This document shows, one piece after another, positions 10,831 through 27,275 of a stretch of DNA of 64,000 bases. Position 1 is the stretch's first letter, and each line of letters opens with the position of its first letter. Source of the stretch: an uncultured delta proteobacterium (GTDB lineage: Bacteria > Myxococcota_A > Polyangia > Fen-1088); the NCBI GenBank assembly GCA_963737265.1, contig CAVTRY010000011.1, positions 256,001 through 320,000 of the forward strand, in the 5' to 3' direction. The translations under genes were made by a program, and so were the position numbers. The notes beneath the pieces are model-generated. The model saw only the letters and a program-made list of their open reading frames with translations, was not told the DNA's origin and made no database searches.

Positions 10831-10864
10831 CGGCGCGGAGGCCAGACCATGGTTAGCGTGAGAC

Positions 10865-11287
10865 ATGTCGGTGTTCACCACTCCATCCCCTGGCGCGGAA
10901 CTGGTTGTAGCGATGCTGGGCGGCTCCGCGACTCTGCGCGGGCTCGGCGCGCGGGCATCGGATTCCGACCGCGTTGGGATTGTCGCCTCAACTCTTTGTG
11001 CGGTTCATTGCGCCGGCACGGCTGTCCTGGCGGGTGCCTCCGGTATCGGTGCGCTCTTCGCGGACGAACGCCTCGAGGTCGGCTTCTTCGTCTGTGCAGT
11101 CTCCGTCGCTCTCGTGGCCCTCGTGCGCGGCTGGCGCCGCCATCGCTCGAGGATGCCTGGCGCTGTAGGCTCGTTCGGCATCGTCATTCTGCTGGCCGCG
11201 CGATGCGGGGCGACCGCGAGCTCCGCTGCGGAAGCAATGCTCTCCGTGGTTGTGTGGCAATGGGGCCTTGTCGCTCGCCCAAGGTAG
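10865..11287 (+). pseudogene. MerC-domain membrane protein, C-terminally truncated
   Basis: DRVGIVASTLCAVHC motif, hydrophobic helices, GWRRHR. Runs into a TonB-dependent receptor fragment. Confidence 0.7.
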
Positions 11288-12807: not shown

Positions 12808-13233
12808 CTACGGCGCCCTCATCAGGATTCGGAATCCCGCTTGCGCAAAGTGCTGATCGGGAGTCGCTGCCTCGGTCGCTGCGTGGTCGAGCATGATCTC
12901 CATGCTCAAACAATCAGTCAGGCTCCATGTCTTATCCGCGTGGGCGGCGTACCGGGCCTCGGCGCGGTCCAGTAGTTGTGGAGTCAAGCGCTCAATGGTC
13001 CAGCCAGCCATCCTTTGGCGCAGGCGGCGCAGCCATGACGCTGCGAGTGCCCGCAAAGGGCTGCGGGCGAAGAAGTTCCCAAACTCGATCAATACCGCGT
13101 CGGTCGTCACGAGAGCTTGCCCAGACTTCTCCCAACTCCGGGCCAAGGTCTTGGCCTGGGCGTGAAGCGAGTCCTTCTGGTTGATGAGGGCGACCAGGTA
13201 GCCCGTGTCGATCAGTATTGCCGCCTTAGCCAT
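12808..13233 (-). CDS. PIN-domain (VapC-like) toxin
   Basis: ILIDTGYLVAL, TTDAVLIEF, WSLTDCLS, DQHFAQAGF. Confidence 0.9.
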   Translation of the reverse strand: MAKAAILIDTGYLVALINQKDSLHAQAKTLARSWEKSGQALVTTDAVLIEFGNFFARSPLRALAASWLRRLRQRMAGWTIERLTPQLLDRAEARYAAHADKTWSLTDCLSMEIMLDHAATEAATPDQHFAQAGFRILMRAP

Positions 13234-13657
13234 CGTGGTTTTCGTAAAGGTACTGGTCGACGTTCTGACTGCCGTCGGTGCGGTCATCGCGACCGGCCTC
13301 CCCTACCAGAGCAGAGAGAAATGCTCCGGGGCTGCTGTTTGGCGGCGCGCCAGGAAGCGGCGAGTTGGGGTTGGGGATCACCTGATGAATCTTCACTTCT
13401 ACCGTGTCGCCGCCGTTGATTCCCGTGACGGCCGCAGGGACGGCGAATTCATTATCGTAGGTCAGGTCCGCCAAGAGGTGATTCCATCGGCCCTGTCCCT
13501 GCCGTCTGATCGAGTAGCGCACAATATGGTTGCTGGGCCGTCGAGTCAGCCCCAACCGCCGTTGCTCGGCGGCGGGAATTGCGATCAATCGATTCTTCGT
13601 CCGGTGGACCATAGCCGAAAACCTGGCCAGGGTAGTCGCAAGATTGGGGTTTGCCAT
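13226..13657 (-). CDS. Putative antitoxin with two AbrB-like segments and a D..NxDxYLY tail
   Basis: Overlaps the PIN gene start by 8 nt. RLIAIPAAEQRRLGL, EFAVP...GDTVEVKI, C-terminal TDGSQNVDQYLY. Confidence 0.65.
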   Translation of the reverse strand: MANPNLATTLARFSAMVHRTKNRLIAIPAAEQRRLGLTRRPSNHIVRYSIRRQGQGRWNHLLADLTYDNEFAVPAAVTGINGGDTVEVKIHQVIPNPNSPLPGAPPNSSPGAFLSALVGEAGRDDRTDGSQNVDQYLYENHDG

Positions 13658-13908: not shown

Positions 13909-14382
13909 CTACCGCTGACAGCCACTCTCGATATCCAAGACCCCACGGCCATCCGACTGCAGCAGGCGAACGAGTTGCTCCATGGTCCTTGGTATTTCGC
14001 ACACATTGGGTATGGAACGCGGACCGTATGCCAAGCGAAAGCCTTCGATCACCGCGGGCATGCGCAGGTGCGCCGAGGCCAGGAACTCGCGGTCGAGGAG
14101 AACCTCTTCGGGCAGGCCTTGGCGGGCGACTTGGCCGTGCGCGAGCACGACGACCGACTCGGCCCACGCCAGCGCCAAGTCGGTATCGTGAATGGCTAGC
14201 ACGACCGTCGTTCCGCTGGCGCTCAACCGATGGAGGAACGCCAAGAACTGTATGCTGCCCGTGGCGTCCATGCCGGCCGTGGGTTCGTCGAAGATGAGCA
14301 CGTCGGGTCGCATGGCCATGATGCCCGCGATGGCGGCCCGCTTGCGCTGACCACCGCTCAGCATTATACGGGCAGTCAGCAT
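13909..14382 (-). pseudogene. ECF/CbiO-type ABC ATPase, N-terminally truncated (no Walker A)
   Basis: Begins at LSGGQRKRAAIAG, then LIFDEPTAGMD and IHDTD. Confidence 0.75.
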
Positions 14383-14385: not shown

Positions 14386-15446
14386 TCACGCCCTTGGGCC
14401 ACGCCAGGCAATCAGCTTGCCGGATTCGTACGCGACCACCAGGACGTCTCCTTTGGGGCTCCAGACGATCTTCGCCGCCGACGAGTCCCCTATGCCGAAT
14501 GCAAGCGGCTTTTTCGGCTGGCGCGCGTCCCAAACGAACACCGCACCATCGCGACCGACACTCGCAAGCAGGTATCCACCGGCCTGGAACGCGACATCGG
14601 TGATGGCGTTGGCATGGCCAAGACCGATCTTCGGTTGGGTGCCCGCGGGTCCCTTGCCCGAGAAATCCCAGATACAGAGCCCCTCGCCACCACCCGTGGC
14701 AAGGTATCGGCTGTCCGCGCTCCAACTGAGTTGCTTCACCTTCACCGGATAGCCCGACATCTCAAGGCCCTCGCCCGAGGCGGCCTCCAGATGTGCACGG
14801 AGGCGTCTTGCGACCCGCAGACGATCCACTTGCCGTCCGGGCTCACGCGCATGCAGATGAGCGAGCCCTTCCACTGAAAGGCGCGGCCTGACTTTCCGCT
14901 CGCCGCATCCCAGAAGCGCAGACCTCCGTAGGCGCTGGTCACGAGGCGATGGGAGTCAACGGGCCCTGCCAGACCGCTCGCGGTGCTCGGACGGACGAAT
15001 GCATGGATGGATTTGAGGTCCGGGCTCCAAACCTTGACCAGCTTTCCAGACCCGGTTGCCAGGCGGCTGCCGTCGGGAGTCCAACCCAGAAGCTCCACCC
15101 AGGCGGCGCCTCCCTCGGCTTCGGCGAGCGGATCGGATGAGCTCGCGGACCATAGCCGGACGCGCCCATCTTGGCCACCCGAGGCGAGGCGACTTCCGTC
15201 GGGAGACCAGGCGAGCGCGAGCGCACCAAGCGCGTGGCCTGCCACCTTTCTCCGGGATCTGCCGTTCGGCCCCATCAGATAGATGCGGCCTTCGCCTCCA
15301 GCCACGGCCAGGGTCTCGTGGCCCTGCGACCAGGCCATGTCGATGGGGAAGTCGCCGATTTCGGTTTGCCACAGGATCTCCAGCACGGGGACATTGGCCA
15401 CCGCCTTCGCAAACGCATCCGCCTCGGGCGCGATCAGCGCAGGCAT
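14386..15446 (-). CDS. WD40-repeat protein associated with the COG0523 GTPase, frameshift near 14788 (probable homopolymer error)
   Basis: [21 protein letters not shown] and [14 protein letters not shown] repeats. Split between ORFs 14742..16118 and 14386..14874. Confidence 0.82.
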
Positions 15447-16810
15447 GCGCGGAATCCTTCGTTCAATGCGGTCGCGTCGAGATCGCGGCCGATGAACACC
15501 AACTGATTGGACCGCTTCTCTTTCCCCCACGGCCGCTCGGGCTCGCCGTCGAACAACATGTGGACGCCTTGGAATACGAAGCGCCGATCCTGATCGGCAA
15601 TGCTGACGATGCCTTTCATGCGGAAGATGTTGGTCCCTTGCTCCATGAGAGTCTTCGACACCCACGCGTTCAACTTCTTCTCGTCCAGGTCGCCATCGGC
15701 CACGATGCTGACCGAGGTCACGGTGTTGTCGTGCACATGCCCTGGGTTGTACTGGTGAACCGAGATAGGCTCGACGGCTTCGCCATCGCGGCGCACGAGC
15801 CGCATGGCGAACTCCGAGGGCAGGTGCTCGGTGTAGAGCACGACATGACCCGGGTAGGGGATCTCGATCAGGACGCGTTTCTCGCCCTTTCGCTTGAGGT
15901 CGATGCGATAGAGCACGCCAGGAAGAAGATAGCCCCCCGTGGCGGGATTGCTGCGCCTCTCGGAGATCAGGCTGACCGCCTCGGCACGTGCCGCTATCAA
16001 CTCCTTGTCGCGTGTATTCGGGATCGGGAGCAAGAGCACGTCCATCGACGGATCGGGGCTGCCATCCTGGAGGGTCAGCACGTGCTCGCCCTTGCCGAGG
16101 CGATACACGCCAGACCACTCGAACGGGTACTCCGGCTCCAAGAAGGCCGGCCGGGTGTCCAAGGCACGCGTGAGATCGAAGCCGCCAACATCGAGAACGT
16201 GGTCCAGATCGATGTCGGCGTTGCGCGTTCGGTGAATGCGAGCCATCGCGTTCATCGAGCGGATCGTCCGCTCAAGGGCGTCAAGCTCCTGCTCGGACAC
16301 CAGGTCGACCTTGTTGAGCAGGATGACGTCGGCAAACGCGATCTGCTCCTGGCACTCTTTGCTGTCCCTGACGTGGAGCGAGACGTGTTTCGCGTCGACG
16401 AGGGTTACGATGCCGTCGAGTCGCAACTGATCCCTCACCTCGTCATCGACGAAGAAGGTTTGCGCGACCGGGGCCGGGTCGGCGAGGCCCGTCGTCTCGA
16501 TGAGAATGGCATCGAGCCTATCCCGCCGTTTCATCAGATTACCGAGGATGCGAATGAGATCCCCGCGCACGGTGCAGCAGATGCATCCGCTGTTCATCTC
16601 GAAGATCTCTTCCTCGGCACCAATGACGAGGGCGTTGTCGATACCCACTTCGCCGAACTCGTTCTCGATGACCGCGATTCTCTTTCCGTGGTTTTCCGTC
16701 AGGATCCGGTTGAGAAGCGTGGTCTTTCCCGAACCCAGAAAACCAGTAAGGACAGTGACAGGGACGCAGTCCTTCTCCGAAGACTCGTCCGTGGATTGTT
16801 GATTCGCCAT
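15434..16810 (-). CDS. COG0523/CobW family G3E metallochaperone GTPase
   Basis: [39 protein letters not shown], and a CobW_C domain (FRMKG, QGVH). Confidence 0.95.
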
Positions 16811-16857
16811 GAAGCTCTCCCTTGATGAGTGCAGATGGTATAGCTGGCGCCGGGCTC

Positions 16858-16878
16858 ATATGCAAGTCTGTTGCATAT
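16858..16878. promoter_or_regulatory. Putative Zur box between the divergent COG0523 and zur-like genes
   Basis: Perfect arms ATATGCAA-GTCTG-TTGCATAT. Confidence 0.8.
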
Positions 16879-16955
16879 ATTGAAAAGGAAGATCGTCGAG
16901 TTGCGAACCCGCGCGCGACCTATGATAGAATGACGGTCAAAGAGCAGGAGACACG

Positions 16956-17426
16956 GTGCGAAGGAATGCGAAGAACCCGGAGACTCAGCAGAGAATCGAC
17001 GACAAGGTGCGGACCTTGCTCGCCAGCGCCAAGTTGCGCCACACCCGGCAGCGGAGTGGAATCCTCGGACTGCTGGTCGAGAAACCAGGGCCCTTCAGCA
17101 CCCAGGAGATCCGTTCTCTCCTTGGCCAGGAGACCTGCGATCCGGTGACGATTTACCGTGTTCTGGAGAACTTCGAGAAGGCACGTATCGTGCGCCGATG
17201 TGACTTTTCGGATGGGGTTGGGCGGTATGAGCTCGCCGCGGGCGACAAGCACCACCATCACCTCGTCTGCACCGGGTGTCGGCGCGTCGAGGATCTGGAC
17301 GTCACGGACTGCCCGACCCAGAAGCTTGAGCGCTTGGCCCGCGCGCGCGGCTACGCGGAAGTCGAGCACTCGCTCGAAATCTTCGGACTCTGCCCGCGCT
17401 GCCAGACCATCGCCGGTCCCGGCTAG
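16956..17426 (+). CDS. Fur-family metalloregulator, probably Zur
   Basis: TRQRSGIL, VTIYRVL, HHHHLVCTGC, GLCPRC. Flanked by zinc-starvation-type genes. Confidence 0.9.
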   Translation: MRRNAKNPETQQRIDDKVRTLLASAKLRHTRQRSGILGLLVEKPGPFSTQEIRSLLGQETCDPVTIYRVLENFEKARIVRRCDFSDGVGRYELAAGDKHHHHLVCTGCRRVEDLDVTDCPTQKLERLARARGYAEVEHSLEIFGLCPRCQTIAGPG

Positions 17427-17512
17427 GCTCCGGCCAGGGTCTTGGCTTGCCTGCGCAGGCGGAATTGCTCCGTGACGCCGCCGATGAACAGCGTGGCGAC
17501 TCCGGCCCATTC

Positions 17513-17535
17513 GATATGCAAGTCAATTGCATATC
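17513..17535. promoter_or_regulatory. Putative Zur box upstream of the leader peptide/TBDR operon
   Basis: Perfect arms GATATGCAA-GTCAA-TTGCATATC. Confidence 0.8.
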
Positions 17536-17760
17536 AAGATTACGGGATTATGCACAGCCGATGTGGCGACGCGGTACCAGCGGGTGCGAGCGTCGTAGGT
17601 GGCGAACGAATGCCTCCTTTGCGAGCCGCGCGACGGAATGGCAAATCATTGGAAGGATCCAACATTCGACTTGCTCGTGACCGACGCGTGGCTCATATTC
17701 CGGCGCAGCATGCTGGCGCGAACGGATAGAGACAGGCCGCTTCTGCCCCGTAAGGGTGCT

Positions 17761-18156
17761 GTGGTGGCCAGACTGTTCGCTGCGGCACTGATCGCCGCCG
17801 TCGGATTCGCGCAGTTCTCGGCCTTCCGGCACGAGGCCAACGTCAGGCACGTGGAATGTGCGGAGCACGGAGAGGCGATCGATGTCGGAATCGTCTCGAA
17901 CCTGGGACCGCCTGCCGTGCACCATCGCGCTGCCGGCACGGGGATGGAAGGGGCCGATAGTGCAGGGGTCTCGCCCCACGAACACTGCTCCGTCGTCTTA
18001 GCGTTTCGGGCAAGCGCGCGAGCACAGATGGTAAGGCTGGCCACGCGTTTCGTTCCGCCGGCAATTGTCGTTAGCCGGATTAGTGCTCCGGCACCGCGAC
18101 CTGGACGCGCGTTCGTCCTCGCTCGTGCGCCGAAGACCTCGCCCCCGTCGGTCTGA
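17761..18156 (+). CDS. Small exported His/Cys protein, DUF2946-like candidate leader peptide
   Basis: Signal-like N-terminus, HEANVRHVECAEHGE, HEHC, Pro-rich C-terminus LARAPKTSPP. Lies directly upstream of the TBDR. Start uncertain. Confidence 0.6.
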   Translation: MVARLFAAALIAAVGFAQFSAFRHEANVRHVECAEHGEAIDVGIVSNLGPPAVHHRAAGTGMEGADSAGVSPHEHCSVVLAFRASARAQMVRLATRFVPPAIVVSRISAPAPRPGRAFVLARAPKTSPPSV

Positions 18157-18204
18157 TCCATTTCGATCCGTCGACGTGGGTGGACCCTAGCTCCAGCGCG
18201 CGCT

Positions 18205-20916
18205 GTGCGAGCTACGTGGCCGTCGTCAGCCGCCCACCTGTTCATCGTTTTTCGGACCTATCGAGGAGATCTCGTGTTTTCACCGCGCCCCATTTCTCAT
18301 CGCCACAATCGCTTTCGATCCCTCAAACCCAGCGTGTGTCTTGCGCTCGGGTTGTGCGCCTGGTTCGCGGCGCGGCCCATGGCTCGTGCCCAGAACGCGG
18401 AAACGCCCACGCTCGAACCGCCGACGGTTTTGGAACAGCAACAGCCTTCCTATCCCCGAGAAGCTGCCGGCGGCGCGCAAGGCGATGTCGTGGTCAACGT
18501 GGCGATCGACAGCGCGGGAAACGTCACCGGGGTGACGCTCGTGCATGGCGCGGCGCCGCCCCTCGACCGCGCCGCGATCGAGGCAGCCAGCCACTGGCGA
18601 TTCAAGCCCGCGCTCCGCGATGGCGTCGCGGTTCCGAGCCGAGTTCAGCTCCTCTTCCACTTCGAGCCGCCGCCGTTGCCTTCATTGCCCGCACCTCCGT
18701 CCAAGCCAGAGACCGCCAGCCCGCCGGCCGTCCCGGCGCCCACGCCGACCACGCAATCGCCGGCCGTCCCGGCTCCCGTGCCGACGACGGAATCGCCGCC
18801 GGCCGCGCCATCTGCTCTTGAAGTCACCGTGCTCGGCCGCCGTCCGCCGGTCAGCCGGGGCGCGTCCGATTTCCAAATCCGCGTCGACCAGCTTGCCGAG
18901 GTCCCGCGCGCCAATGCCTCCGAGCTGCTCAAACTGGCGCCTGGCATTCTCCTGACCAACGAAGGCGGCGAGGGCCACGCCGAACAGGTCTTCATGCGCG
19001 GGTTCGATGCGCGAGAGGGACAGGACATCGAGTTCACGGTGGGCGGCGTGCCAATCAACGAAAGCGGGAACCTGCACGGTAACGGCTACGCCGACACGCA
19101 TTTCATCATCCCCGAATTGGTCGAGTCGCTGCGCGTGCTCGAAGGACCCTTCGATCCGCGCCAGGGGAACTATGCAGTGGCCGGCAGCGCCGACTACCAG
19201 CTCGGGCTGGCCGAGCGGGGACTCACCGCGCGCTACACCAGCGGGAGCTTCGGCACGCAGCGCGTGCTGGGGCTGTGGGGGCCGCCGGGCGAGAGCACGC
19301 ACACCTTCGGGGCGGCCGAGATCTACAAAACGGACGGGTTTGGTCAGAATCGGGACGCCCAGCGCGCGTCGGTCATGGGTCAGTACGAGGGGCGCTTCGG
19401 GAACAGCGGCAGCTACCGCATCACGACCCAGGCCTATGCCACCCACTTTCATTCGGCCGGCATCGTTCGCGAGGACGACTACCAATCGGGGAAGATGGGC
19501 TTCTTCGACAGCTACGACCTCAGCAGCTTCGCGCGCGAGCACGTGCCCGAGAGCGGAGATGCCTCGCGCTACTCGCTGGCCGCAGATCTCGAAACCCGCG
19601 CCGGGGACACCACCTTCTCCCAGCAGATTTTCGTCATCAAGCGCGACATGCGCCTGCTCGAAAACTTCACCGGGTTCCTGCTCGACGTGCAGGAGCCGCT
19701 GCAAAGCGTGCACGACCAGCGCGGCGACATGATCGACCTCGCCGTTCACGAGGTCACCATCGGCGCGCGCGGCTCCGCGCGCCTGCACGGAATCTTTCTC
19801 GGCCAGCTGCAAGAGATGGAGTTGGGCTACTTCGCACGCGGCGACCAGGCCGCGGGCACGCAGCAGCGCCTGGAGGCGTCGACCGGCGTGCCCTATCTGA
19901 CCGACACCGATCTCGTCTCCCAGATCGGAAACATCGGCCTCTACGGCGACGCGAACCTGCGGCTGCGCTCGTGGCTCAGCCTGCGCGGCGGCGCACGCGC
20001 CGACCTTCTCACCTACAGCGTTCTCAACAACTGTGCCGCGCAGACCGTCGCCCATCCCTCGACCACCAACCCTCCCATCGACCAGAGTTGCTTGAGCCAG
20101 CAGGACTACGGACGTCCGCGCGAGCCCGACCAGGAAACCTCCACGTCGAGCGTCGCGTTCCTGCCGCGCGCCTCGCTCATCGTCGGCCCCTTCCGCGACG
20201 TCACCTTTTCGGCCAGCTACGGCCAGGGTATTCGATCGATCGATCCCTCCTACATCACCCAGGACGTCGCGACGCCGTTCGCGCACATCGTCGCCTACGA
20301 AGCCGGGGCTGGCTACGCCGCGAACATAAGGGACACCACCGTCATCGCGCGCTCGGTCTTTTTTCAGACCGTGGTCGACAGGGATCTCATCTTCGACCAA
20401 ACCGCCGGGCGCAACGTGGTTGGGGTCGGCACCACGCGCTCGGGCTGGATCGGGGCGCTGCGCTTGACCGGACGATTTTTCGACGAGTCGGCGAACCTGA
20501 CCCTGGTACGTGCGACCTTCAACGACAACCACGAGGCAGTGGCCTACGTGCCGTCCACCGTGCTCCGCTCCGACACCGCGCTTTTCACCCTGTTGCCGTG
20601 GCGCCCGCGCGGGACGCCGGTGCGCGCCTCGCTGAGCGGCGGCGTGACCTTCGTCGGCCGGCGCCCGCTGCCCTATGGGGAGGTCAGCGATCGTATCTTC
20701 ACCGTCGACGCATCAGCCATCCTTTCCTGGTCGCACTACGAATTGCGGCTCCACTCGACCAACCTGCTCAACACGCAATACCGCCTGGGCGAATACGACT
20801 ACGCCTCGGATTTTCACGGCCAGCCGCAGCCGACGTTGGTGCCCGAACGCGAATTCGCGGCCGGCGCGCCCCGCGCGGTTTTCGTCACCTTTGGCATCAA
20901 CCTCGGAGGTTCGTGA
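18205..20916 (+). CDS. TonB-dependent receptor with N-terminal TonB-C domain and Pro-rich linker
   Basis: YPREA...GDVVV..IDSAG..WRFKPA TonB-C domain. Plug LLKLAPG...GHAEQVFMRGFD...IIPELVESLRVLEGP. C-terminal GAPRAVFVTFGINL. Start uncertain. Confidence 0.92.
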   Translation: MRATWPSSAAHLFIVFRTYRGDLVFSPRPISHRHNRFRSLKPSVCLALGLCAWFAARPMARAQNAETPTLEPPTVLEQQQPSYPREAAGGAQGDVVVNVAIDSAGNVTGVTLVHGAAPPLDRAAIEAASHWRFKPALRDGVAVPSRVQLLFHFEPPPLPSLPAPPSKPETASPPAVPAPTPTTQSPAVPAPVPTTESPPAAPSALEVTVLGRRPPVSRGASDFQIRVDQLAEVPRANASELLKLAPGILLTNEGGEGHAEQVFMRGFDAREGQDIEFTVGGVPINESGNLHGNGYADTHFIIPELVESLRVLEGPFDPRQGNYAVAGSADYQLGLAERGLTARYTSGSFGTQRVLGLWGPPGESTHTFGAAEIYKTDGFGQNRDAQRASVMGQYEGRFGNSGSYRITTQAYATHFHSAGIVREDDYQSGKMGFFDSYDLSSFAREHVPESGDASRYSLAADLETRAGDTTFSQQIFVIKRDMRLLENFTGFLLDVQEPLQSVHDQRGDMIDLAVHEVTIGARGSARLHGIFLGQLQEMELGYFARGDQAAGTQQRLEASTGVPYLTDTDLVSQIGNIGLYGDANLRLRSWLSLRGGARADLLTYSVLNNCAAQTVAHPSTTNPPIDQSCLSQQDYGRPREPDQETSTSSVAFLPRASLIVGPFRDVTFSASYGQGIRSIDPSYITQDVATPFAHIVAYEAGAGYAANIRDTTVIARSVFFQTVVDRDLIFDQTAGRNVVGVGTTRSGWIGALRLTGRFFDESANLTLVRATFNDNHEAVAYVPSTVLRSDTALFTLLPWRPRGTPVRASLSGGVTFVGRRPLPYGEVSDRIFTVDASAILSWSHYELRLHSTNLLNTQYRLGEYDYASDFHGQPQPTLVPEREFAAGAPRAVFVTFGINLGGS

Positions 20917-21719
20917 TGCGGAAACGACGTCTCTGGCTCTTCTCGCTCTTGCTCGCGCCGGGAGGCATTGCGTGCGTGGGACAAACCGGCGGCGACGCCA
21001 TCGACTTCGCGGTGGCCGCCGTGGGACCGGCGAGCGCGATCCTCGGGCAACCGCTTGCTTGCACCAACGACGGCAACTGGGCCATCTCGCTAACCCAGGC
21101 GACGCTGCATATCGGGGCCGTGTACCTCGATCAAAGCCAACCGATTTCGGGCGGACAAGCCACCGGCTGCTACCTCACCGGGACCTACGTCGCGCAGGAA
21201 ACCTCGGCGCTCGACGTGGATCTCCTGTCGCCCGAGCCGCAATTGTTTCCCGCCGACGCCCACGGCATTACCTATCCGCCAGCGCTGGTCGGCCAGGTTT
21301 GGCTGACCCACGGGGATATCAACACCATTGCCGATCGGGTTCCCGTGCTCCAGGTGGCGGGCACGGCCACGCAAGCGGCCAGCGCCTATCCGTTCACCGC
21401 CGCGCTCACCATCGGATCGAATCGGCAAGCCTCGGGCGGCGCGGTGGCCGGGGGCGATCCCATTTGCAAGGAACGCATTGTCTCGCCGGTTCCGGCCGCG
21501 GTGACCATCCAGCCGACCGGCGGGCTGCTTTTGACCGTCGATCCGTGCCGCCTGTTCACCAACGTCGACTTCAGCCAGCTGGGGCCAGGCTCGACGCCCG
21601 GCACGTACGCCTTCAGCGACGACCCGACATCGGCGGGCTACACCCAGCCGAGTCAGAACCTTTACGGAAATCTGCGCAACACGGGGCCGTACACGTTCTC
21701 GTGGACCCCGAATCCATAA
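20916..21719 (+). CDS. Lipoprotein of unknown function (TBDR-associated)
   Basis: ATG overlaps the TBDR stop; lipobox in MRKRRLWLFSLLLAPGGIAC. Confidence 0.8.
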   Translation: MRKRRLWLFSLLLAPGGIACVGQTGGDAIDFAVAAVGPASAILGQPLACTNDGNWAISLTQATLHIGAVYLDQSQPISGGQATGCYLTGTYVAQETSALDVDLLSPEPQLFPADAHGITYPPALVGQVWLTHGDINTIADRVPVLQVAGTATQAASAYPFTAALTIGSNRQASGGAVAGGDPICKERIVSPVPAAVTIQPTGGLLLTVDPCRLFTNVDFSQLGPGSTPGTYAFSDDPTSAGYTQPSQNLYGNLRNTGPYTFSWTPNP

Positions 21720-21761
21720 ACACAGAAGGAGATGAAAGCAATGAGAACCAGAGATGAGAGA

Positions 21762-23096
21762 ATGCGAACCAAGATCTTGATGATTGGGGCGGTCGTCGTC
21801 GTGGCCGCCGCGTTTGCAGGCTGTGGGAGCAGCAGCAGCTCGCCGCCGGACACGGGCGGTGCGACCACGGCCGGCGGTGCGACCGGCGCAGGCGGTGCCA
21901 CCAATACTGGCGGCGCCACCGGCGCGGGCGGATCGGGCGTCACGAGCTTCACACCGCCCGCGGATCCGGGCCCTGGAGGAATTATCTTCGCGGCCTCGGG
22001 CGAGGTCCTCGCGCTCACGGGTTACGCCTTCCCGCCCGTGAACCCCGGCGATCCGGCATTCGTGGACGGTTGGCAGGTGAGTTTCACGCGCCTGCTCGTC
22101 ACTGTCGACAAGATCGTGCTGTCGAGCAACCCGGACGTCAGCCCCGGCAACCAGGCGCTCACCGGGCCGGCGCCGGGCAGCGTGGGTGGCGGGCTGGTCG
22201 CCGAGGTGGATGGGCCCTGGGCGGTCGACCTGGCTCACGGCGATCCCAGCTACCTTCCCGGCAAAGGTGGTCCGGGCGAAGAGGCGGTACCCATCGTGGC
22301 GCTCAAGACCCAGAACAAGAACGGCAACAAGGCCTTCGCCACCGACGGCACCCGCTACGCATTCGGGTTCGATGTCGTGCCCGCGACAACGAGCGCTCTC
22401 AACGTCAACCTCGATAGTGCGGCGATGTCCGACTACCAGCAAATGGTCGCCGATGGCTGCACCGTGCTTTACGTTGGAATCGCCACTTTCAAGGGCGGCA
22501 CGGTTCCAGGACACACAGATTGCAATAGCGGAGCCTATGCCACCTGGCCGACCACGGTAAACTTTCACTTCTGCTTCAAGTCGCCGACTACCTACGGCAA
22601 CTGCCAGAACCCCGACAACGATCCGGCGCAGGCCCTCTCCGGCGAAGAGCACGAGCGCGGCATCGCGTTCCTGGCCAACGAATCGGTCATCGGGCAAGTC
22701 ACGATTCACACCGATCACCCGTTCTGGGATAGCGTGCTGCACGACTCGCCCGCGCACTTCGACCAGTTCGCCGCGCGTGTGGTCGGCCAAGTGGACGCGG
22801 GCGTGCCCACGGCGACGCTGGAAATGACCCAGGGGGTGGACTACACCGCGTACACCGATGCGCTCGGCAATCGCCTCAACTGGCGCTACTGCATGGATCC
22901 GCCGACCGACGTTCACCCGCAGTTCACAGGAGCCATGGCCTTCGATCCACAAAGCGTGCCCCACGCCACCGGGAACGATCCCTCCACCGGCCTGCGCGAC
23001 TATTACGACTACACGACTTACGACCAGAGCACGCAAGGGCACCTGAACTCGGACGGGCTGTGCGCGGTCGAGCGGCACTATCCGTCGCCCCAATGA
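21762..23096 (+). CDS. Lipoprotein of unknown function with Gly/Thr linker, His/Cys-containing
   Basis: Lipobox FAGC, GEEHER, TIHTDHPFWD, QGHLN. Confidence 0.8.
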   Translation: MRTKILMIGAVVVVAAAFAGCGSSSSSPPDTGGATTAGGATGAGGATNTGGATGAGGSGVTSFTPPADPGPGGIIFAASGEVLALTGYAFPPVNPGDPAFVDGWQVSFTRLLVTVDKIVLSSNPDVSPGNQALTGPAPGSVGGGLVAEVDGPWAVDLAHGDPSYLPGKGGPGEEAVPIVALKTQNKNGNKAFATDGTRYAFGFDVVPATTSALNVNLDSAAMSDYQQMVADGCTVLYVGIATFKGGTVPGHTDCNSGAYATWPTTVNFHFCFKSPTTYGNCQNPDNDPAQALSGEEHERGIAFLANESVIGQVTIHTDHPFWDSVLHDSPAHFDQFAARVVGQVDAGVPTATLEMTQGVDYTAYTDALGNRLNWRYCMDPPTDVHPQFTGAMAFDPQSVPHATGNDPSTGLRDYYDYTTYDQSTQGHLNSDGLCAVERHYPSPQ

Positions 23097-23104
23097 GGTA
23101 AGCC

Positions 23105-23803
23105 TTGAGCGCCATTGAAACGGTCAAGCGGATCTTGCTCGCGTCGGGCGCGGGCTGGGTCCTCTGGTTCCTTGGGGCGCTGTCGATGGCCAGCCTCGCG
23201 CTGGCCGTCGAGCGCTGGCTCTATTTGCGCAGACGTGGTGGCGATCTCGAAGCCCTCGCTCGCGAGCTCGACGAACACCTGTCGAGCGGCGACTTCGTCA
23301 GCGCACGGCGCGTGCTCGAGGCCAGCTCAGCGGTGGCGGCGCGCGTGGCGGACGCGGGCTTGCGACTCGCCGAGCGGGGAACCGAGGCTGCCGACAAGGC
23401 GATGCAAAGTGCGGCGGCTCTCGAACGCGGTCGCCTCGAACGCTGGCTCGCCTTCCTGGCCACGGTGGGCAACAATGCTCCCTTCATCGGACTGTTCGGA
23501 ACCGTGGTGGGCGTCATCCACGCTTTCGAAGAGCTCGGCCACGCCGCCCCTGCCCACGCAGCGGCGGCTGGCCAGGTCGCTTCGCAGGCGGTGATGTCCA
23601 GCATCGCCGAGGCCCTGGTCGCGACCGCCGTCGGCATCCTGGTCGCGCTGCCGGCGGTGGCGGCCTACAACTACTTGCAACGGCGAGTGACGGCCTTGCT
23701 TTCCGGGGCCGAGGTGTTGACCAACCTGGTGCTCGCATACATCGCGGACGATGCGCGGCCGCGACTGCGCGAGGTGAAAGGGGTGGGCGATGGCGGCGCC
23801 TAG
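23105..23803 (+). CDS. exbB: MotA/TolQ/ExbB proton channel protein
   Basis: LATVGNNAPFIGLFGTV and IAEALVATAVG. Confidence 0.9.
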   Translation: MSAIETVKRILLASGAGWVLWFLGALSMASLALAVERWLYLRRRGGDLEALARELDEHLSSGDFVSARRVLEASSAVAARVADAGLRLAERGTEAADKAMQSAAALERGRLERWLAFLATVGNNAPFIGLFGTVVGVIHAFEELGHAAPAHAAAAGQVASQAVMSSIAEALVATAVGILVALPAVAAYNYLQRRVTALLSGAEVLTNLVLAYIADDARPRLREVKGVGDGGA

Positions 23804-24212
23804 CGGACAGGCCGCGAACGGGATCATCTCCGGCATCAACGTCACCCCGCTCGTGGACGTGATGCTCGTGCTTCTGGTGATCTTCATCGTGACGGCGAAG
23901 ATCATCGTGACCCCGGCGGTGCCGCTCGATCTGCCGCACGCGGCTCATGGCGAGGAGGTGCAAGTCGTTCTGTCGGTGATCGTGCCCGTGCGCGGGCCGA
24001 TGCTGGTCAACGGCGCTGCTTTGCCGAACGACGAAGCCCTGGAGGACAAAGCGCGTGCGGCCCTGGCTGGCGACCGAGATCTGCGCGCGGTCATCCAAGC
24101 CGATGGCGACGTGCCCCACCGGCGCGTGATCCACGTGCTCGATCTGCTCAAAGGCGCCGGGCTAACCCGCGTGGCGTTCGGTGCGCTTCCAGTCGAGCAA
24201 GAGAAGCAGTGA
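23790..24212 (+). CDS. exbD: ExbD/TolR biopolymer transport protein
   Basis: INVTPLVDVMLVLLVIF and IQADGDV. Confidence 0.92.
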   Translation: MAAPSGQAANGIISGINVTPLVDVMLVLLVIFIVTAKIIVTPAVPLDLPHAAHGEEVQVVLSVIVPVRGPMLVNGAALPNDEALEDKARAALAGDRDLRAVIQADGDVPHRRVIHVLDLLKGAGLTRVAFGALPVEQEKQ

Positions 24213-24222
24213 GGCACGTTTC

Positions 24223-25047
24223 ATGCGCTATCCTTTGTCGACCAAACTCGTGAACCGTTCACCGCGCATCGTGGATCTGGTTTTTCTCGCCGAGCCCGCG
24301 GGCCGATGGCGGCGACTTGCCGTGGGCGGCGCGGCGGTGCTGGCGCTTTATGGTGGCGCTCTTTCGCTGGTGAGCCGCCTGGGCAACTCCCTCGGTCCGT
24401 GGAGCGCGGAGATGGCCGCGCGCATTCACGAGGCCATCGCGATGGAGCGAGCGATCGATGTGACGCCGCCTCCGCCCCAAGCTGCACCACCACCTCCCGC
24501 GCCCGCGCCGGAAGCGCCCCATATCGCGATTCCTCGAACCGCGCGGGCACTCAACGCGCAGCAACCTCGCGCGACGCCACCCGCGCAGGCGGGACAACTC
24601 GCGGCGGCGTCGACGGAGCCGGTCGATTTCACCGGCATGGCGTTCATCGTCGGCTCGGGTGCTTCCTACGCCGGGGGGACAACGACCAGCAGCGGAACCA
24701 GCCGCAAGGCAGCGCTCGGTGCCGTCGGTCCTGGGCCAAGTGTCGGCAAGTCGTCTGGTGGTCGCAGTCGAGCCCGCCAGGTCTCGCTCGACCAATCCGC
24801 TTGGAACTGTCCTTGGCCGGCCGAGGCCGATGCCGAGCAGGTAAACGAACAGACGGTCGTACTGAAAGCGAGCGTGGGAGCCGACGGCCGGGCCGAGCGG
24901 GTGGATGTCCTCAGCGATCCTGGATTCGGATTCGGTGCGGCTGCTCGCCTTTGTGCGCTCCGGACTCGCTTCGAGCCCGCGCGCGATTCGGCCGGACAGC
25001 CCATCGCCGCACAATCTCCCTCCATCCGCGTCCACTTTTATCGGTGA
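24223..25047 (+). CDS. tonB: Energy transducer TonB
   Basis: N-terminal TM helix, Pro-rich linker, C-terminal VGADG..DPGFGFG..RFEPARD domain. Follows exbBD. Confidence 0.78.
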   Translation: MRYPLSTKLVNRSPRIVDLVFLAEPAGRWRRLAVGGAAVLALYGGALSLVSRLGNSLGPWSAEMAARIHEAIAMERAIDVTPPPPQAAPPPPAPAPEAPHIAIPRTARALNAQQPRATPPAQAGQLAAASTEPVDFTGMAFIVGSGASYAGGTTTSSGTSRKAALGAVGPGPSVGKSSGGRSRARQVSLDQSAWNCPWPAEADAEQVNEQTVVLKASVGADGRAERVDVLSDPGFGFGAAARLCALRTRFEPARDSAGQPIAAQSPSIRVHFYR

Positions 25048-25056
25048 AGGACTCTC

Positions 25057-25353
25057 ATGCGCTCGCACCTCTTGCTTTTCGTGGTCCTCGTCGCCGGTGA
25101 GCTCTCGGGTTGCAATCGTCATCCCGCGCGCGTGGACGAATGCGAGGCGATCCTCAACCGTCTCATAGAACTCGAGCTCAGCGAGTCCGGATACCGGGAT
25201 TCTGTTCTTCGTGCGCGTTGGCAGCAGGACCTGGCCCGTCGCTTCGCGCCGGACATGGACCGTTGTCGCGGGCGCGAAGTGCGCGGTTCTCTTAGGACTT
25301 GTCTCGCAACGGCGCGGAGCTCGGAAGAGATCGTTCACCGGTGTCTCGATTGA
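25057..25353 (+). CDS. Small Cys-containing putative lipoprotein
   Basis: Lipobox LSGC, four further Cys, RBS-like GAAGGA upstream. Confidence 0.6.
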   Translation: MRSHLLLFVVLVAGELSGCNRHPARVDECEAILNRLIELELSESGYRDSVLRARWQQDLARRFAPDMDRCRGREVRGSLRTCLATARSSEEIVHRCLD

Positions 25354-25559
25354 TCTGGATTCGCCGCCGCCCCTTCCGCGTTGCCCTTCTAGCTGCCTTG
25401 CATTTTCACAATCTCGATCTTGGCAATCACTTGGCAGGGGATGGTGTAACCCGAGGCGCGGAGCCCGCGGCTATCTGAGGCGACTCGTCATCCTTCCGGC
25501 GGATGTCGGCAATCGGATCCGACCATCCGGTGTCAGGTATACTAGGAGACACAAAAGCC

Positions 25560-26177
25560 GTGAGCGACGCGCGCGACAAAAGCATCCTGTTTCTTCCAGG
25601 CGAAGTGGGTGAGCGCGCCCTCTATGCCAGGTTGGTCGCTGGCGAGGACGCCGCGTACCGCGAGTGCTACCAGCAGCACGCGCCCAAGCTGATGCGTCTA
25701 CTCACTGGCATCCTGCGCAACAAGGCCCGCGCCGAAGAGATTTTGCAGGAAACCTTCATCGCGGCCTTCCGAGGCATCGCCCGCTTCCGCGGCGAGGTGA
25801 GCATTGCCGTCTGGCTTGCGCGCATCGCCACCAACCGGGCCTACAACGCCCTTCGGGACGAAACCCGGGCCAAGCGAACCGCGCCGCCGCCCTCCGGCGA
25901 GCACGTCACGCATGCCGAGCTGCACGTCGAGGGCAGAGATCTGGCCCGCAAGGTCATGGCCATCTTGGATCAAATGGAACCATCCAAGAAGCTGACCCTG
26001 CTACTGCAAGCCGAGGGTTACACCACCGCGGAGATCGCCAACGTCACGGGAGAGCCCCGCGGGACCATCTTGGCCCGCCTGTCGCGCGGCCGTGCCGAGC
26101 TGTCATTGCGCATGGCCGAGGCCGGGCTTGTGGCGCGCGAGATGCCGGAGCACGTGCACGTGGAGGATCGGTCGTGA
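25560..26177 (+). CDS. ECF RNA polymerase sigma factor
   Basis: AEEILQETF, WLARIATN, EIA...GTILARLSRGR. AGGAG upstream of the GTG. Confidence 0.9.
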   Translation: MSDARDKSILFLPGEVGERALYARLVAGEDAAYRECYQQHAPKLMRLLTGILRNKARAEEILQETFIAAFRGIARFRGEVSIAVWLARIATNRAYNALRDETRAKRTAPPPSGEHVTHAELHVEGRDLARKVMAILDQMEPSKKLTLLLQAEGYTTAEIANVTGEPRGTILARLSRGRAELSLRMAEAGLVAREMPEHVHVEDRS

Positions 26178-27275
26178 CCGACTGCCTCTCGCTGCGCGAG
26201 CGTCACTTCACACCGGGCGCGGACAGCCATGCCGCTCCGGCGTGGGTCGCGCATCTCGGCGACTGTGCGGAATGCAGATTGGCGGTGGAGAATCTGCCGC
26301 AGGTCGATCGGGCGCTCGCCGAATGGTCGCGCGCGTCGCTCGAAGATCCCGGATTTTGCCACAGTCGCGCTGGCCGCCGCGGGCGCAGCGCGCAACCAAC
26401 GCAGACGGCGCACGGTTCGCCGTTCGGTGCCTTTCCTATACACAGGCTTCGTCACCGCCGCGCTGGCCGGCGGCTTGGTCGCCGCCGTGTGGGTCGCGCG
26501 CAATCGGGCTGCCGCGCCCAAGCTGCTGCTTGCCGGCGGCGAGCTTCACGCCACCGCCGAGGCCAAGACCGCCGTGCTCGGTAATGGCGCACGTGTCCGC
26601 TTGGACATGGGGACGCTCAAGATCGAAACCGGGAGTCGGTCCACGCAGGCATTGCTGCTGCCCGCCGGACGCGTTTTCATTGAAGTGCCCAAGCTGCCGG
26701 CCGGCAGCACCTTGTCGGTGCGCACGCCCGACGCGGAAATCCGGGTGCGTGGCACCCGTTTCCAAGTCATTCGCATCAGTCAGGAGACACAAATCCAAGT
26801 CAGCGAGGGCGTGGTCGAAGTCCGGCCGGTGGGATTGAGTCGGCCCACACAGTTCCTGCGCGCGGGCGAATCGACCACGGTCGGCTCGGCCGAGGCATAC
26901 CGCGAAGGCTTGCGGCGCCAGACCCTCGCCGCGCTCGAGCACGGCGAATTCTCCGCCGCCGAAGCGCGCATCGGTGAGTTGCTTGGATCGGGCGCCGAAG
27001 CTGCCCAGCAAGCCGAGGCCCAAGCACTCTTGGCCTGGTCGCTTTCCGCCCGCGGTAAGCGCGGCCTTGCCATCGCACGCTACCGGCAAGCGCTGGCGTT
27101 GTATCCCGCCGGGCAGCAAGCCCTTTGGGCGGAAAACGCCTGCGCCGAGCTCGCCATTCTGGTCGAGCAGGAGAGCCCCGCCAGCGGTCCCTCGGCCTGG
27201 GCCGATTGTCTGCGCCGATTCCCGGACGGCGTGCACGCCGAACTGGCTCGCGCGCGCGCCCAGCCCTCGCGATGA
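26174..27275 (+). CDS. Anti-sigma factor (zf-HC2-like N-terminus, TM, FecR domain, TPR-like C-terminus), frameshift near 26343
   Basis: HLGDCAEC in one frame, VRTPDAEIRVRGTRF and VSEGVVEV in the next. GTG overlaps the sigma stop. Confidence 0.8.

Follow-up and report, generated by a model that had tools for sequence, protein, structure and literature searches.

Genes of the locus and the proteins they encode

The locus lies within a 64,000-nucleotide stretch of DNA (the window) from a soil myxobacterium and comprises a Fur-family regulator gene flanked by two palindromic boxes, a COG0523 gene paired with a WD40-repeat gene, and an operon of eight genes in the order small ORF, TonB-dependent receptor (TBDR), lipoproteins LP1 and LP2, ExbB, ExbD, TonB and a small lipoprotein (Table 1). 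Adjacent operon genes overlap by 1 to 32 nt or lie no more than 12 nt apart; the small ORF alone is set further off, ending 117 nt ahead of the TBDR gene. An earlier note on this DNA had described such an operon headed by a "leader". Its gene order and tight coupling stood up, but the "leader" is a genuine conserved His/Cys-rich membrane protein, new here. It combines an N-terminal TM helix with H24-x5-H30-x2-C33-x2-H36, H73-x-H75-C76 and an invariant C-terminal APKTSPP (18-sequence alignment). It matches nothing in Pfam or NCBIfam, nor does any of its homologues have a Pfam family, and its start is uncertain because the frame is open from 17599.

Table 1. Features of the locus, in window coordinates
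Feature	Position	Strand	Match or landmark
WD40-repeat gene	14390..15446	-	PF00400 4e-22; 3' of COG0523, start overlaps COG0523 stop
COG0523 G3E GTPase, 458 aa	15434..16810	-	cobW 1.1e-61, CobW_C 1.6e-27
Box 1	16858..16878	.	ATATGCAAGTCTGTTGCATAT; 47 nt 5' of COG0523 start, 77 nt 5' of fur start
Fur-family regulator, 156 aa	16956..17426	+	PF01475 1e-19
Box 2	17514..17534	.	ATATGCAAGTCAATTGCATAT; 87 nt 3' of fur stop, 226 nt 5' of small-ORF start
Promoter-like block	17665..17695	+	conserved 5' of small ORF in type-1 loci (alignments)
Small membrane protein ("leader")	17761..18156	+	79 homologues
TBDR, 880 aa	18274..20916	+	TonB_C 4e-16, Plug 5.6e-12, barrel 3.9e-6
LP1, 267 aa	20916..21719	+	lipobox GGIAC; start overlaps TBDR stop by 1 nt
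LP2, 454 aa	21732..23096	+	lipobox FAGC
ExbB/TolQ-family proton channel	23105..23803	+	PF01618 1.8e-30
ExbD/TolR	23790..24212	+	PF02472 9e-24
TonB-like protein	24181..25047	+	TonB_C 7e-5, 23.6 bits vs cut-off 24.6
Small lipoprotein, 98 aa	25057..25353	+	lipobox LSGC

The receptor consists of a signal peptide, a TonB_C-like domain (residues ~57-131), a Pro-rich linker, a stretch LEVTVLG that we read by eye as TonB-box-like, a plug and a barrel; a 29-sequence alignment gave a mean column identity of 63% and revealed a conserved Cys pair in one loop. Profile matches thus bear out the earlier idea of a TonB-fused receptor with a dedicated ExbB-ExbD-TonB, the TonB-like protein having a TM helix, a Pro-rich stretch and a weak C-terminal domain (with an alternative ATG at 24223). 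No inner-membrane importer is encoded within the operon, and no NRPS, PKS or siderophore-synthetase family was found among the GC3-filtered ORFs scanned across the window, in line with the proposed absence of metallophore synthesis genes.

In LP1, C85 and C184 are invariant and H65 nearly so (45-sequence alignment). None of the 45 members matches Pfam, and a profile search of the PDB gave no relative; the N-terminal domain is homologous to that of LP2. LP2 has a long Gly/Ser/Thr linker past its lipid-anchored Cys, and alignments of close members show H326-T-D328-H329...H337-D338...H342, E305-E306-H307, H437 and six Cys to be invariant, the conserved cysteines suggesting that LP2 is extracytoplasmic. 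Its 1040 homologues fall into 387 clusters at 50% identity. Neither 20 nor 59 members yielded a shared Pfam family, only scattered single matches under cut-offs and one lipid-attachment signal, and a PDB relative was not found. Some LP2 paralogues adjoin OprB-family or BBP2 porins, so that the family keeps company with several kinds of outer-membrane channel. The small lipoprotein, which carries a conserved C-x-R-H past its lipobox and four more conserved Cys (20-sequence alignment), matches nothing in Pfam or NCBIfam. The novelty claimed for the two larger lipoproteins was upheld; together with the products of the small ORF and the small lipoprotein gene, LP1 and LP2 appear to represent four families without description and without a Pfam or PDB match.

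The COG0523 protein has a CICC motif, and an insert of ~170 aa separates its GTPase domain from CobW_C; it scores under every NCBIfam cut-off (YjiA-like 242/361, ZigA 191/600 and CobW 187/332 bits). The WD40 frame is broken near 14778, where tblastn with the orthologues from two other loci (L059 and L078) splits, and its last ~120 residues (the C-terminal repeats) are thus readable only in another frame, owing to either a pseudogene or an assembly indel. The COG0523-WD40 pair does face one palindrome as described, though with this frameshift.

The regulator and the palindromic boxes

Both boxes are perfect 21-bp palindromes of the form ATATGCAA-N5-TTGCATAT, with arms ATGCAA-N5-TTGCAT in a 6-5-6 layout, box 2 being a perfect copy of the arms of box 1. 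Allowing up to 3 mismatches, the window contains 3 matches against 0.02 expected, a number reached in none of 100 shuffles. In the whole genome (6.55 Mb), the palindrome occurs at up to 2 mismatches only at box 1 and box 2, and a reversed control pattern gave no match, so the earlier description of two perfect palindromes around a Fur-family gene is confirmed. Read by eye, the left arm of box 1 forms the -35 of a COG0523 promoter (TTGCAT-17-TATACC, minus strand). The conserved promoter-like block of the operon lies ~130 nt downstream of box 2 and is degenerate here (TCGACT-17-TGGCTC), compared with TTGACA-17-TAnnnT in relatives. A consensus promoter scan detected none at box 1, near box 2 or at this block. 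The GC content is 0.585-0.595 across 16000-17500 and 0.63-0.68 in the flanks.

The regulator bears the motif HHHHLVCTGC and a Cys4 site (C105, C108, C146, C149). Its PDB neighbours are ScZur (9e-15), a Fur (8.5e-15), Mtb FurB (2e-13) and Nur (2e-7), and its top NCBIfam models are Fur (1e-18), far under cut-offs. Positions aligned to D65 and C79, which we take to be zinc ligands of ScZur, are R80 and A94 and thus not conserved, while E92 aligns to the Glu presumed to be a ligand of Fur site 2. The lack of these two positions, together with the Nur-box layout of the operator, weakens the labels "Zur-type" and "zinc" given before. The genome has only one other Fur-family gene, encoding a canonical Fur with an HHDH motif, which adjoins an ORF judged by eye to be ferritin-like; PF01297 (the ZnuA family) has no match in this genome (99.5% completeness).

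The regulator is rare: 15 proteins were found at E<=1e-10, and within the order it occurs in 1 of 89 genomes, the present one (0/88 others at E<=1e-20). A metagenome contig, L159, carries a COG0523-box-fur unit with one box (92% and 87% identity), the box 1 position being occupied by a related box. COG0523-box-fur is thus a conserved unit, in which COG0523 is the regulator's conserved partner and probable target.

Conservation of the uptake module in Polyangia

LP2 is far more widespread, being present in 36/89 genomes of the order (35/88 without the present one, at E<=1e-30). The following tallies come from 80 loci fetched with LP2 itself and are therefore conditional frequencies. LP1 lies directly 5' of LP2 in 51/70 loci with enough flank, and a TBDR 5' of LP2 in 43/58. 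Of the 48 loci whose flanks are complete, 15 show the whole operon (type-1) and 19 only TBDR-LP1-LP2 (type-2). The small ORF is found in 13/15 of the former and 2/19 of the latter, and the small lipoprotein in 12/15 and 0/19, respectively. TBDR-LP1-LP2 is a conserved Polyangia module, reported here for the first time.

The operon's closest relatives (L005-L008, 86-89% protein identity) have no fur, COG0523 or box in ~4 kb upstream, and neither a regulator orthologue (the best match reaching 30% identity) nor a perfect box is present in five genomes that carry the operon form. These observations, together with the rarity of the regulator relative to LP2, the single box of the L159 unit and the distance of box 2 from the conserved block, weaken the notion of a "self-contained Zur system".

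On the other hand, comparison of loci points to a metal role. Boxes akin to these (TTGCAAC-N3-GTTGCAA) lie at module promoters of other genomes, often beside Fur-like genes, and in eight other loci similar boxes lie immediately at the start of a TBDR, LP1 or LP2 gene, in several cases with a Fur-like gene next to them. In 1.05 Mb of loci, 11 of 14 TTGCAA-N5-TTGCAA sites (<=2 mismatches) fell within -150..+40 of TBDR, LP1 or LP2 starts, a zone making up 3.3% of the sequence searched. Fur-like genes are adjacent to the module in five loci, an ArsR gene adjoins LP1-LP2 in L014, and COG0523-WD40 adjoins the module in L078 and also in L059, where a degenerate box separates the two. The same box accompanies a separate ExbB-ExbD pair of genome G519 (51% and 49% identity to the pair here). 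Among the box regulons inspected for five further genomes, no member points to a particular metal (no znu, mntH, nik or ribosomal paralogues), and in two of the five (G520 and G521) the box was not enriched over control. As related boxes recur at module promoters, often near Fur-like genes, this evidence supports a metal role for the uptake operon; of the earlier proposal of zinc or other metal acquisition, the metal part was thus strengthened but zinc was not.

Proposed mechanism, alternatives and known systems

Our reading, towards which we lean slightly, is that the locus encodes a Polyangia-specific TonB-dependent system for outer-membrane uptake of a transition metal or metal complex, under Fur-family regulation. 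Its core, established by synteny, is the TonB_C-bearing receptor with LP1 and LP2. LP2 would bind the substrate through the His/Asp cluster HxDH-x7-HD-x3-H, to which EEH and a distal His would add further ligands, and the lipoproteins may, as suggested earlier, capture metal at the cell surface for the receptor. The core is joined here to its own ExbB-ExbD-TonB in a single operon, and two envelope proteins, one inner-membrane-anchored with periplasmic His/Cys motifs and the other a small disulphide-rich lipoprotein, travel with the energiser. The metal-loaded regulator may bind both boxes and repress COG0523 together with a promoter near box 2 that would read into the operon; metal starvation would then lift the repression of both. 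Zinc is the most likely metal, at somewhat less than half of the total probability, with nickel, cobalt and manganese as further candidates. It is favoured because of the COG0523 partnership, the lack both of a ZnuA-family protein and of any other Zur candidate, and the other Fur lying beside a ferritin-like gene, although the operator has a 6-5-6 layout like that of the box of Nur, a nickel sensor.

A rather unlikely alternative is that the juxtaposition is incidental, the regulator controlling only itself and COG0523-WD40, while the operon runs on its own conserved promoter and imports a substrate that is not necessarily a metal, for instance a peptide, glycan or cofactor, the His/Asp site of LP2 then serving either in binding or in enzymatic catalysis. 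The closest relatives lacking regulator and box, the one-box COG0523-box-fur unit, the position of box 2 upstream of the conserved block and the GC dip, as expected of an inserted cassette, would all fit this. However, box 2 perfectly repeats arms otherwise absent from 6.55 Mb, and the boxes at module starts in the eight other loci, as well as COG0523-WD40 beside the module in L059 and L078, also speak against it.

The 6-5-6 boxes, ATGCAA-N5-TTGCAT here and TTGCAA-N5-TTGCAA in relatives, match the Nur box, the cobalt chaperone CobW is among the relatives of COG0523 (187 bits), and a HupE/UreJ_2 gene lies 16 kb downstream, which might suggest a Nur-like regulator with receptor and lipoproteins importing nickel or cobalt. 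We nevertheless regard this as improbable, since Nur is a weaker neighbour of the regulator than ScZur or the Fur proteins, neither a nickel enzyme nor a nik gene turned up in the vicinity of any box, and COG0523 scores under the CobW cut-off. Uptake of iron, haem or manganese under a Fur-, Irr- or Mur-like paralogue seems more doubtful still: a TBDR with a TonB of its own is classic for iron uptake, the best NCBIfam models are Fur, and E92 aligns with the presumed Fur site 2 ligand, but a separate canonical Fur stands beside the ferritin-like gene, COG0523 is, to our knowledge, no hallmark of iron regulons, and the box is unlike the n-1-n Fur layout. Least probable of all is a copper-handling module, in which LP1/LP2 would be copper-binding lipoproteins distantly like MbnP and the small His/Cys protein would carry copper in the periplasm, for even if a protein-language-model search linked homologue P0026 to MbnP clusters (score 0.91, 183/256 features shared, 11/30 hits) and one LP2 paralogue adjoins a cytochrome c554/YtkA-like protein, PF20243 matches 0/59 LP2 and 0/45 LP1 members, hhalign against 15 Polyangia MbnP sequences gave probabilities <=3.6%, the conserved residues that could act as ligands are His, Asp and Glu, Met-rich motifs being absent, and Fur-family and COG0523 partners are, as far as we know, atypical of copper systems.

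The metal-uptake system that we favour resembles several known ones in part. In TbpA/TbpB and SusC/SusD, a lipoprotein gene is translationally coupled to a TonB-dependent receptor gene, as here, and the likeness extends to the long flexible linker of LP2 past its lipid anchor; no sequence similarity was detected, however, and some LP2 paralogues have OprB or BBP2 porins as partners instead. The myxochelin receptor MxcH (NCBIfam NF038079) likewise has a TonB_C-like domain before its plug, model positions 1-275 corresponding to TBDR residues 49-345, but the receptor scores 88 bits where the cut-off is 925, which shows the barrel to belong to no related family, and siderophore genes were not seen near it among the GC3-filtered ORFs of the window. 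Zur boxes are not known to have the 6-5-6 layout of the operator described here.

The Nur box of Streptomyces coelicolor is a 6-5-6 palindrome, tTGCaa-N5-ttGCAA, and Fur boxes are given an n-1-n layout (PMC2691836). A Fur-family protein and a 6-5-6 box are thus in common, whereas the Nur regulon includes sodF and nikABCDE and the boxes here (ATGCAA-N5-TTGCAT) accompany COG0523 and a TBDR operon; in sequence, Nur is also a more distant neighbour of the present regulator than the ScZur and Fur structures are. ZepA of Anabaena, a PEP-CTERM exoprotein bearing the site H-X2-9-H-F/Y-H, is described as Zur-regulated, extracellular and zinc-binding (PMC10957091). LP1 and LP2 differ in being lipoproteins with another motif and no detectable Pfam similarity, and metal binding by LP2 is a prediction, but protein-based, metallophore-free extracytoplasmic capture (putative here), a conserved His cluster, Fur-family control and sporadic distribution would be common to both. 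Finally, Zur-regulated TonB-dependent zinc receptors include the ZnuD type and ZnuK/ZnuL of Caulobacter (PMC4176598). Set against such systems, the present operon encodes in addition LP1, LP2, the His/Cys membrane protein and the small lipoprotein, none of them from a described family; zinc is its predicted substrate, its receptor has an N-terminal TonB_C domain and its genome is without ZnuABC. What the present locus shares with them is a Fur-family regulator, COG0523 and a TonB-dependent receptor in one neighbourhood, consistent with metal-controlled uptake across the outer membrane.

A receptor, two lipoproteins and a dedicated energiser

The operon that the earlier note had described to the right of the regulator was recovered as stated, with all eight genes present and tightly spaced: rightward, these are the small ORF, the TonB-dependent receptor (TBDR), two lipoproteins (LP1 and LP2), ExbB, ExbD, a TonB-like gene and a small lipoprotein. 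Junctions between them are overlaps or gaps of at most 12 nt, save for 117 nt ahead of the TBDR gene. Neither Pfam nor NCBIfam gave a match for LP1, LP2, the small ORF or the small lipoprotein, and four of the eight operon proteins are, as far as sequence comparison can tell, without a described family. No inner-membrane importer is encoded in the operon. After a gap of 149 nt 3' of it there are an ECF sigma factor and a FecR-like anti-sigma gene (25503-27275), a pair which is not kept beside the operon elsewhere, as matches of 25-27% were found in loci L010 and L057 only.

Positions of the boxes and genes of the regulator cassette and the operon
Feature	Position	Strand	Sequence or remarks
Weaker boxes (TGCAA-N5-TTGCA core)	9707-9727 and 10812-10832		6-7 kb upstream of the fur-operon region
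WD40 gene	14390-15446	-	start 15446; frame break near 14778
COG0523 GTPase	15434-16810	-	cobW 208 bits, CobW_C 95.7 bits, GCICC visible
Box 1	16858-16878		ATATGCAAGTCTGTTGCATAT; pattern search
Fur-family gene	16956-17426	+	PF01475, 71.3 bits vs cut-off 23.1, E 1e-19
Box 2	17514-17534		ATATGCAAGTCAATTGCATAT; pattern search
Small ORF	17761-18156	+	79 homologues
TBDR	18274-20916	+	TonB_C 4e-16, Plug, barrel
LP1	20916-21719	+	lipoprotein
LP2	21732-23096	+	lipoprotein
Small lipoprotein	25057-25353	+	98 aa

The receptor belongs to the TBDR family by both its plug (46.5 bits vs 23.9) and its barrel (27.4 vs 27), its TonB_C domain spans residues 57-131, and the model of MxcH matches its N-terminus alone, at 88 bits against a cut-off of 925. 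Among TBDRs its family stands out by its conservation (mean column identity of 63% in 29 sequences), with an invariant NxxGNLHxNGYxDxHF in the plug and an invariant Cys pair within one loop. N-terminal TonB_C domains are not mentioned in the consulted part of a TBDT review (PMC11658791). The energiser is composed of adjacent ExbB (105.7 bits) and ExbD (84.4 bits) genes and of a TonB-like protein which is borderline for TonB_C (23.6 bits vs 24.6) and has a TM helix and a Pro-rich stretch. As to the small ORF, it had been taken for a leader, but it is a genuine gene. Its homologues have in common an N-terminal TM helix, the motifs H-x5-H-x2-C-x2-H and H-x-H-C, and an invariant C-terminal APKTSPP; all 79 are unnamed, and none has a Pfam family. 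In the alignment of the small lipoprotein, C-x-R-H and four further Cys are conserved.

LP2 has 1040 homologues at E<=1e-3 among 8000 candidates scored, forming 387 clusters at 50% identity. No Pfam family is shared among 20 members or among 59, the scans giving scattered single matches under the cut-offs and one lipid-attachment signal, and a PDB profile search returned 0 matches. Close members are invariant in H326-T-D-H329, H337-D338, H342, E305-E306-H307, H437 and six Cys, and H326, D328, H329 and H437 are conserved at 90% or more in 59 sequences reaching down to 30% identity. LP1 has no Pfam match in any of 45 members, and only two chance-level matches, with no relative, in a PDB profile search; its conserved residues include one His and two Cys. 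LP1 and LP2 are homologous over their N-terminal ~100 residues (hhalign 93.5% with signal peptides; 63.8%, E 7e-5, without them).

A copper-related reading of the module (TBDR-LP1-LP2) arises only from an embedding similarity: a search with a homologue (P0026) proposed MbnP clusters with a score of 0.91. However, neither Pfam nor hhalign confirms such a kinship, as 0 of 59 LP2 and 0 of 45 LP1 members match MbnP (PF20243) at E<=1 and the hhalign probability, which speaks against the lead, does not exceed 3.6%.

Palindromic boxes and the Fur-family regulator

The two perfect 21-bp palindromes reported around the Fur-family gene are real. With up to 3 mismatches their pattern has 3 matches in the window against 0.02 expected, a number reached in 0 of 100 shuffles, and when up to 2 are allowed, the 6.55-Mb assembly (25 contigs, 99.5% complete) has box 1 and box 2 as its sole sites; there the pattern search found no other strong box. 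The window holds ATGCAA-N5-TTGCAT twice, and TTGCAA-N5-TTGCAA is present in L011 and L031, two loci from other genomes. Both the 6-5-6 layout and the half-sites agree with the nickel-responsive Nur box, whose consensus is given as tTGCaa-N5-ttGCAA in the consulted part of PMC2691836. A looser box, TGCAA-N5-TTGCA, is found 9 times in the genome vs about 2.5 expected (a hand estimate from base composition), and those outside the window lie within or beside unrelated or unrecognised ORFs. One of the two weaker upstream boxes precedes a truncated, frame-broken P-type ATPase fragment (9760-10685), and the other stands 35-50 nt ahead of the gene for a MerC-family membrane protein (10865-11287), 6.7 kb upstream; the fragment and this gene are metal-related, and might belong weakly to the same regulon or supply a candidate inner-membrane step.

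All promoters named here are readings by eye, and a consensus promoter scan gave none near box 1 or box 2. Box 1 seems to provide the -35 element of a COG0523 promoter (TTGCAT-17-TATACC), and a comparable arrangement is seen at box 2 (TTGCAT-16-TATGCA). Loci with ExbB and the following genes behind TBDR-LP1-LP2 (type 1) have a common promoter-like block, TTGACA-17-TAnnnT, whose copy in the window is degenerate and lies at about 17665-17695, so that box 2 stands about 130 nt upstream of it.

[quoted passage not shown] As to the label "Zur-type", given earlier to the whole system, the regulator's sequence speaks partly for and partly against it. C105/C108 and C146/C149 align with the CxxC pairs of S. 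coelicolor Zur (ScZur, 3mwm) and M. tuberculosis FurB, as expected of a structural Cys4 zinc site, and both of these are among the closest solved structures, with HHHHLVCxxC in common; but the curated Zur model NF008646 stays far under its cut-off (38 bits vs 167), and the regulator is also under every cut-off of the Fur, PerR and Irr NCBIfam models. Regarding the regulatory zinc ligands of ScZur, which we take to be D65, C79, H85 and H87, H100 and H102 of the regulator are conserved while R80 and A94 align to D65 and C79, and C82, D83 and E92 are near the putative regulatory site. The closest kinship is not to Nur in the PDB sequence comparison: Nur (3eyy) matches with E 2e-7 over residues 63-150 only, more weakly than Zur and Fur structures.

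The COG0523 protein has the cobW domain, CxCC motif and CobW_C domain of a G3E GTPase, and no subfamily model reaches its cut-off on it; it is a putative target of the regulator in the window and in L159, a metagenome contig. Of the COG0523-WD40 pair that box 1 was said to face, both genes are present, but the frame of the WD40 gene is broken: the final ~120 residues can be read in a different frame only, unlike in the intact orthologues of L059 and L078, and this may be either decay or an assembly indel. Since a stray ABC_tran fragment (13909-14382) and a PIN-domain gene (12808-13287) lie beyond it, the region looks degraded. Elsewhere in the window, a single 1248-aa open frame (56548-60294) has amino-acid permease and T2SSE/type IV secretion ATPase domains; it may be an unusual fusion, or else a missed stop has joined two genes.

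Distribution of the module and a proposed history of the cassette

We fetched 80 loci using LP2 as the query, and the counts obtained from them are therefore conditional on LP2 presence. Nearly all come from Polyangia MAGs, with Minicystis rosea and Byssovorax cruenta in addition; M. rosea DSM 24000, which is cultivable, carries TBDR-LP1-LP2 (L076). The earlier note had asked for a conserved gene order with the lipoproteins accompanying the TBDR, and such an order was found: LP1 immediately precedes LP2 in 51 of the 70 loci whose flanks suffice, and a TBDR is upstream of LP2 in 43 of 58. Among 48 loci with full flanks, 15 are of type 1, 19 contain only TBDR-LP1-LP2 (type 2) and the remaining 14 have other arrangements. 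The small ORF and the small lipoprotein travel with the energiser (13/15 and 12/15 type-1 loci, respectively, vs 2/19 and 0/19 of type 2). LP2 itself was present in 21 of 401 sampled genomes of the phylum, in 36 of 89 of the window's order and in 7 of 12 other genomes of the genus.

In L014 (same MAG as L023), LP1-LP2 follow two BBP2 (OmpL-like) porin genes with a divergent ArsR-family gene, and boxes are found ahead of LP1 and of LP2; downstream there follow a cobW-domain gene and one of the radical SAM/B12-binding type. A third recurrent arrangement, without LP1 and TBDR, is composed of an OprB-family porin, an LP2 paralogue, an opposite-strand Usp gene and two exporter-fold ABC half-transporters, and was seen in six or seven loci (L015, L035, L040, L046, L051, L053, L056). 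LP2 thus accompanies several kinds of outer-membrane channel. MnoP, which carries no weight in this account, is probably an OprB-like Mn channel.

The view that regulator and operon form a self-contained system is weakened by this comparison. The nearest operon relatives (L005-L008, 86-89% protein identity) have no fur, COG0523 or box in the 4 kb upstream, and five genomes with type-1 operons have neither a regulator orthologue (best 30% identity) nor a perfect box. Of 89 genomes of the order, the window's own alone was found to have the regulator, whose relatives number 15 proteins at E<=1e-10 in a collection of 5.8 billion. L159 carries COG0523 (92%) and fur (87%) with a single box between them, and the 325 nt that follow fur contain no other. 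The GC content over 16000-17500, the fur cassette, is 0.585-0.595 vs 0.63-0.68 in the flanks, which fits an inserted segment. The simplest history would have a COG0523(-WD40)-box-fur cassette inserted next to an older operon, which a further copy of the box now faces.

Does the module belong to such regulons in other genomes? Over the 1.05 Mb that the loci cover, TTGCAA-N5-TTGCAA, when up to 2 mismatches are allowed, gives 14 sites, a total which is unremarkable because six control patterns range from 2 to 19. However, the zone within -150 to +40 of estimated TBDR, LP1 or LP2 starts, which makes up 3.3% of the sequence, contains 11 of these sites, although, the loci being mutually related, they stand for perhaps five or six independent lineages. 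Written out more fully, the consensus reads TTGCAAC-N3-GTTGCAA. In five loci (L011, L023, L033, L054, L065) the module is adjoined by Fur-like genes with 27-41% identity to the regulator of the window, four of these genes having DHPH instead of the HHHH motif. One genome with two module loci (G519) has an unlinked ExbB-ExbD pair, 51% and 49% identical to the window's, with the same box, and in L059 WD40-COG0523 is divergent from the TBDR with a degenerate box between. Box searches in five type-2 genomes gave 24, 10, 13, 37 and 10 forward sites vs 11, 9, 22, 5 and 2 for controls, and the neighbours of the best sites included ExbB-ExbD and no metal-naming gene. Together these observations are good circumstantial evidence for placing the module in Fur-family, hence metal-responsive, regulons.

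Proposed function and known systems

We propose that the module serves TonB-dependent outer-membrane uptake of a metal or metal complex. LP2, aided by its paralogue LP1, would bind the substrate via the His/Asp cluster and work with the TBDR, which the dedicated ExbB-ExbD-TonB would energise in this genome; the energiser would be accompanied by the product of the small ORF, a His/Cys membrane protein facing the periplasm, and by the small lipoprotein. We also propose that the module was brought, probably recently, under a rare Fur-family repressor, which would act through box 2 and have COG0523 as its primary target. Gene content, synteny, conserved motifs, the places of the boxes and the distribution of module and regulator are direct observations, from which metal binding, localisation, contacts among the proteins, repression at box 2 and the metal itself are inferred.

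Zinc is the favoured candidate as the metal. In its favour we count COG0523 as the regulator's conserved partner (L159), the finding of no ZnuA-family protein and no znuABC in the 99.5% complete genome, the closeness to the ScZur and FurB structures, and the fact that the only other Fur-family gene of the genome has an HHDH motif and lies beside an ORF that looks ferritin-like by eye. Against certainty stand the Arg and Ala at the Asp and Cys ligand positions of ScZur, the Nur-like operator, the models under their cut-offs and the lack of a metal-naming gene among the box neighbours examined in five other genomes. In another part of the window (37478-42228), a three-gene cluster may be another metal-related unit; it encodes a 753-aa protein with a weak metallophosphoesterase match, a di-haem cytochrome c peroxidase (CCP_MauG) and a HupE/UreJ_2 membrane protein.

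The boldest reading, which we regard as unlikely when taken as a whole, is that of a new class of metal capture, independent of metallophores, within the envelope of myxobacteria. LP2 would have a new fold and a new His/Asp metal site passing the ion to the paired TBDR, OprB or BBP2, and the TonB_C domain of the TBDR, the APKTSPP His/Cys protein and the small lipoprotein would couple ExbBD-TonB to onward transfer; this periplasmic relay, previously unseen, would dispense with a dedicated inner-membrane importer.

Polyangia are abundant soil predators, and to our knowledge their metal economy is essentially unstudied. LP2, with over 1000 homologues, has a candidate metal site that lends itself to direct testing. 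Should it bind zinc or another metal, an organism without ZnuABC would have a route of capture based on protein. If the proposed history is true, it is a case of a regulator cassette recruited to an older uptake operon. The fuller box consensus is usable as a Fur-family operator motif for regulon prediction in Polyangia.

A literature search, with bioRxiv supplements and the PDF supplements of PMC1698941 outside its scope, found no description of the module. Its kind, Fur-family-controlled TonB-dependent metal uptake with accessory binding proteins, is known: from the parts of the sources consulted, the Zur-regulated receptors of Caulobacter (PMC4176598) exemplify such uptake, and ZepA, a Zur-regulated exoprotein (PMC10957091), exemplifies the accessory binding protein. 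MxcH, the myxochelin receptor, has the N-terminal architecture of the window's TBDR, the rest of its model being unmatched. With Nur, as presented in the part of PMC2691836 consulted, the operator shares its 6-5-6 layout, whereas the regulator's sequence is nearer to Zur and Fur structures. What is new is the composition: four family-less proteins of eight, a TonB_C-bearing receptor and a Nur-like operator.
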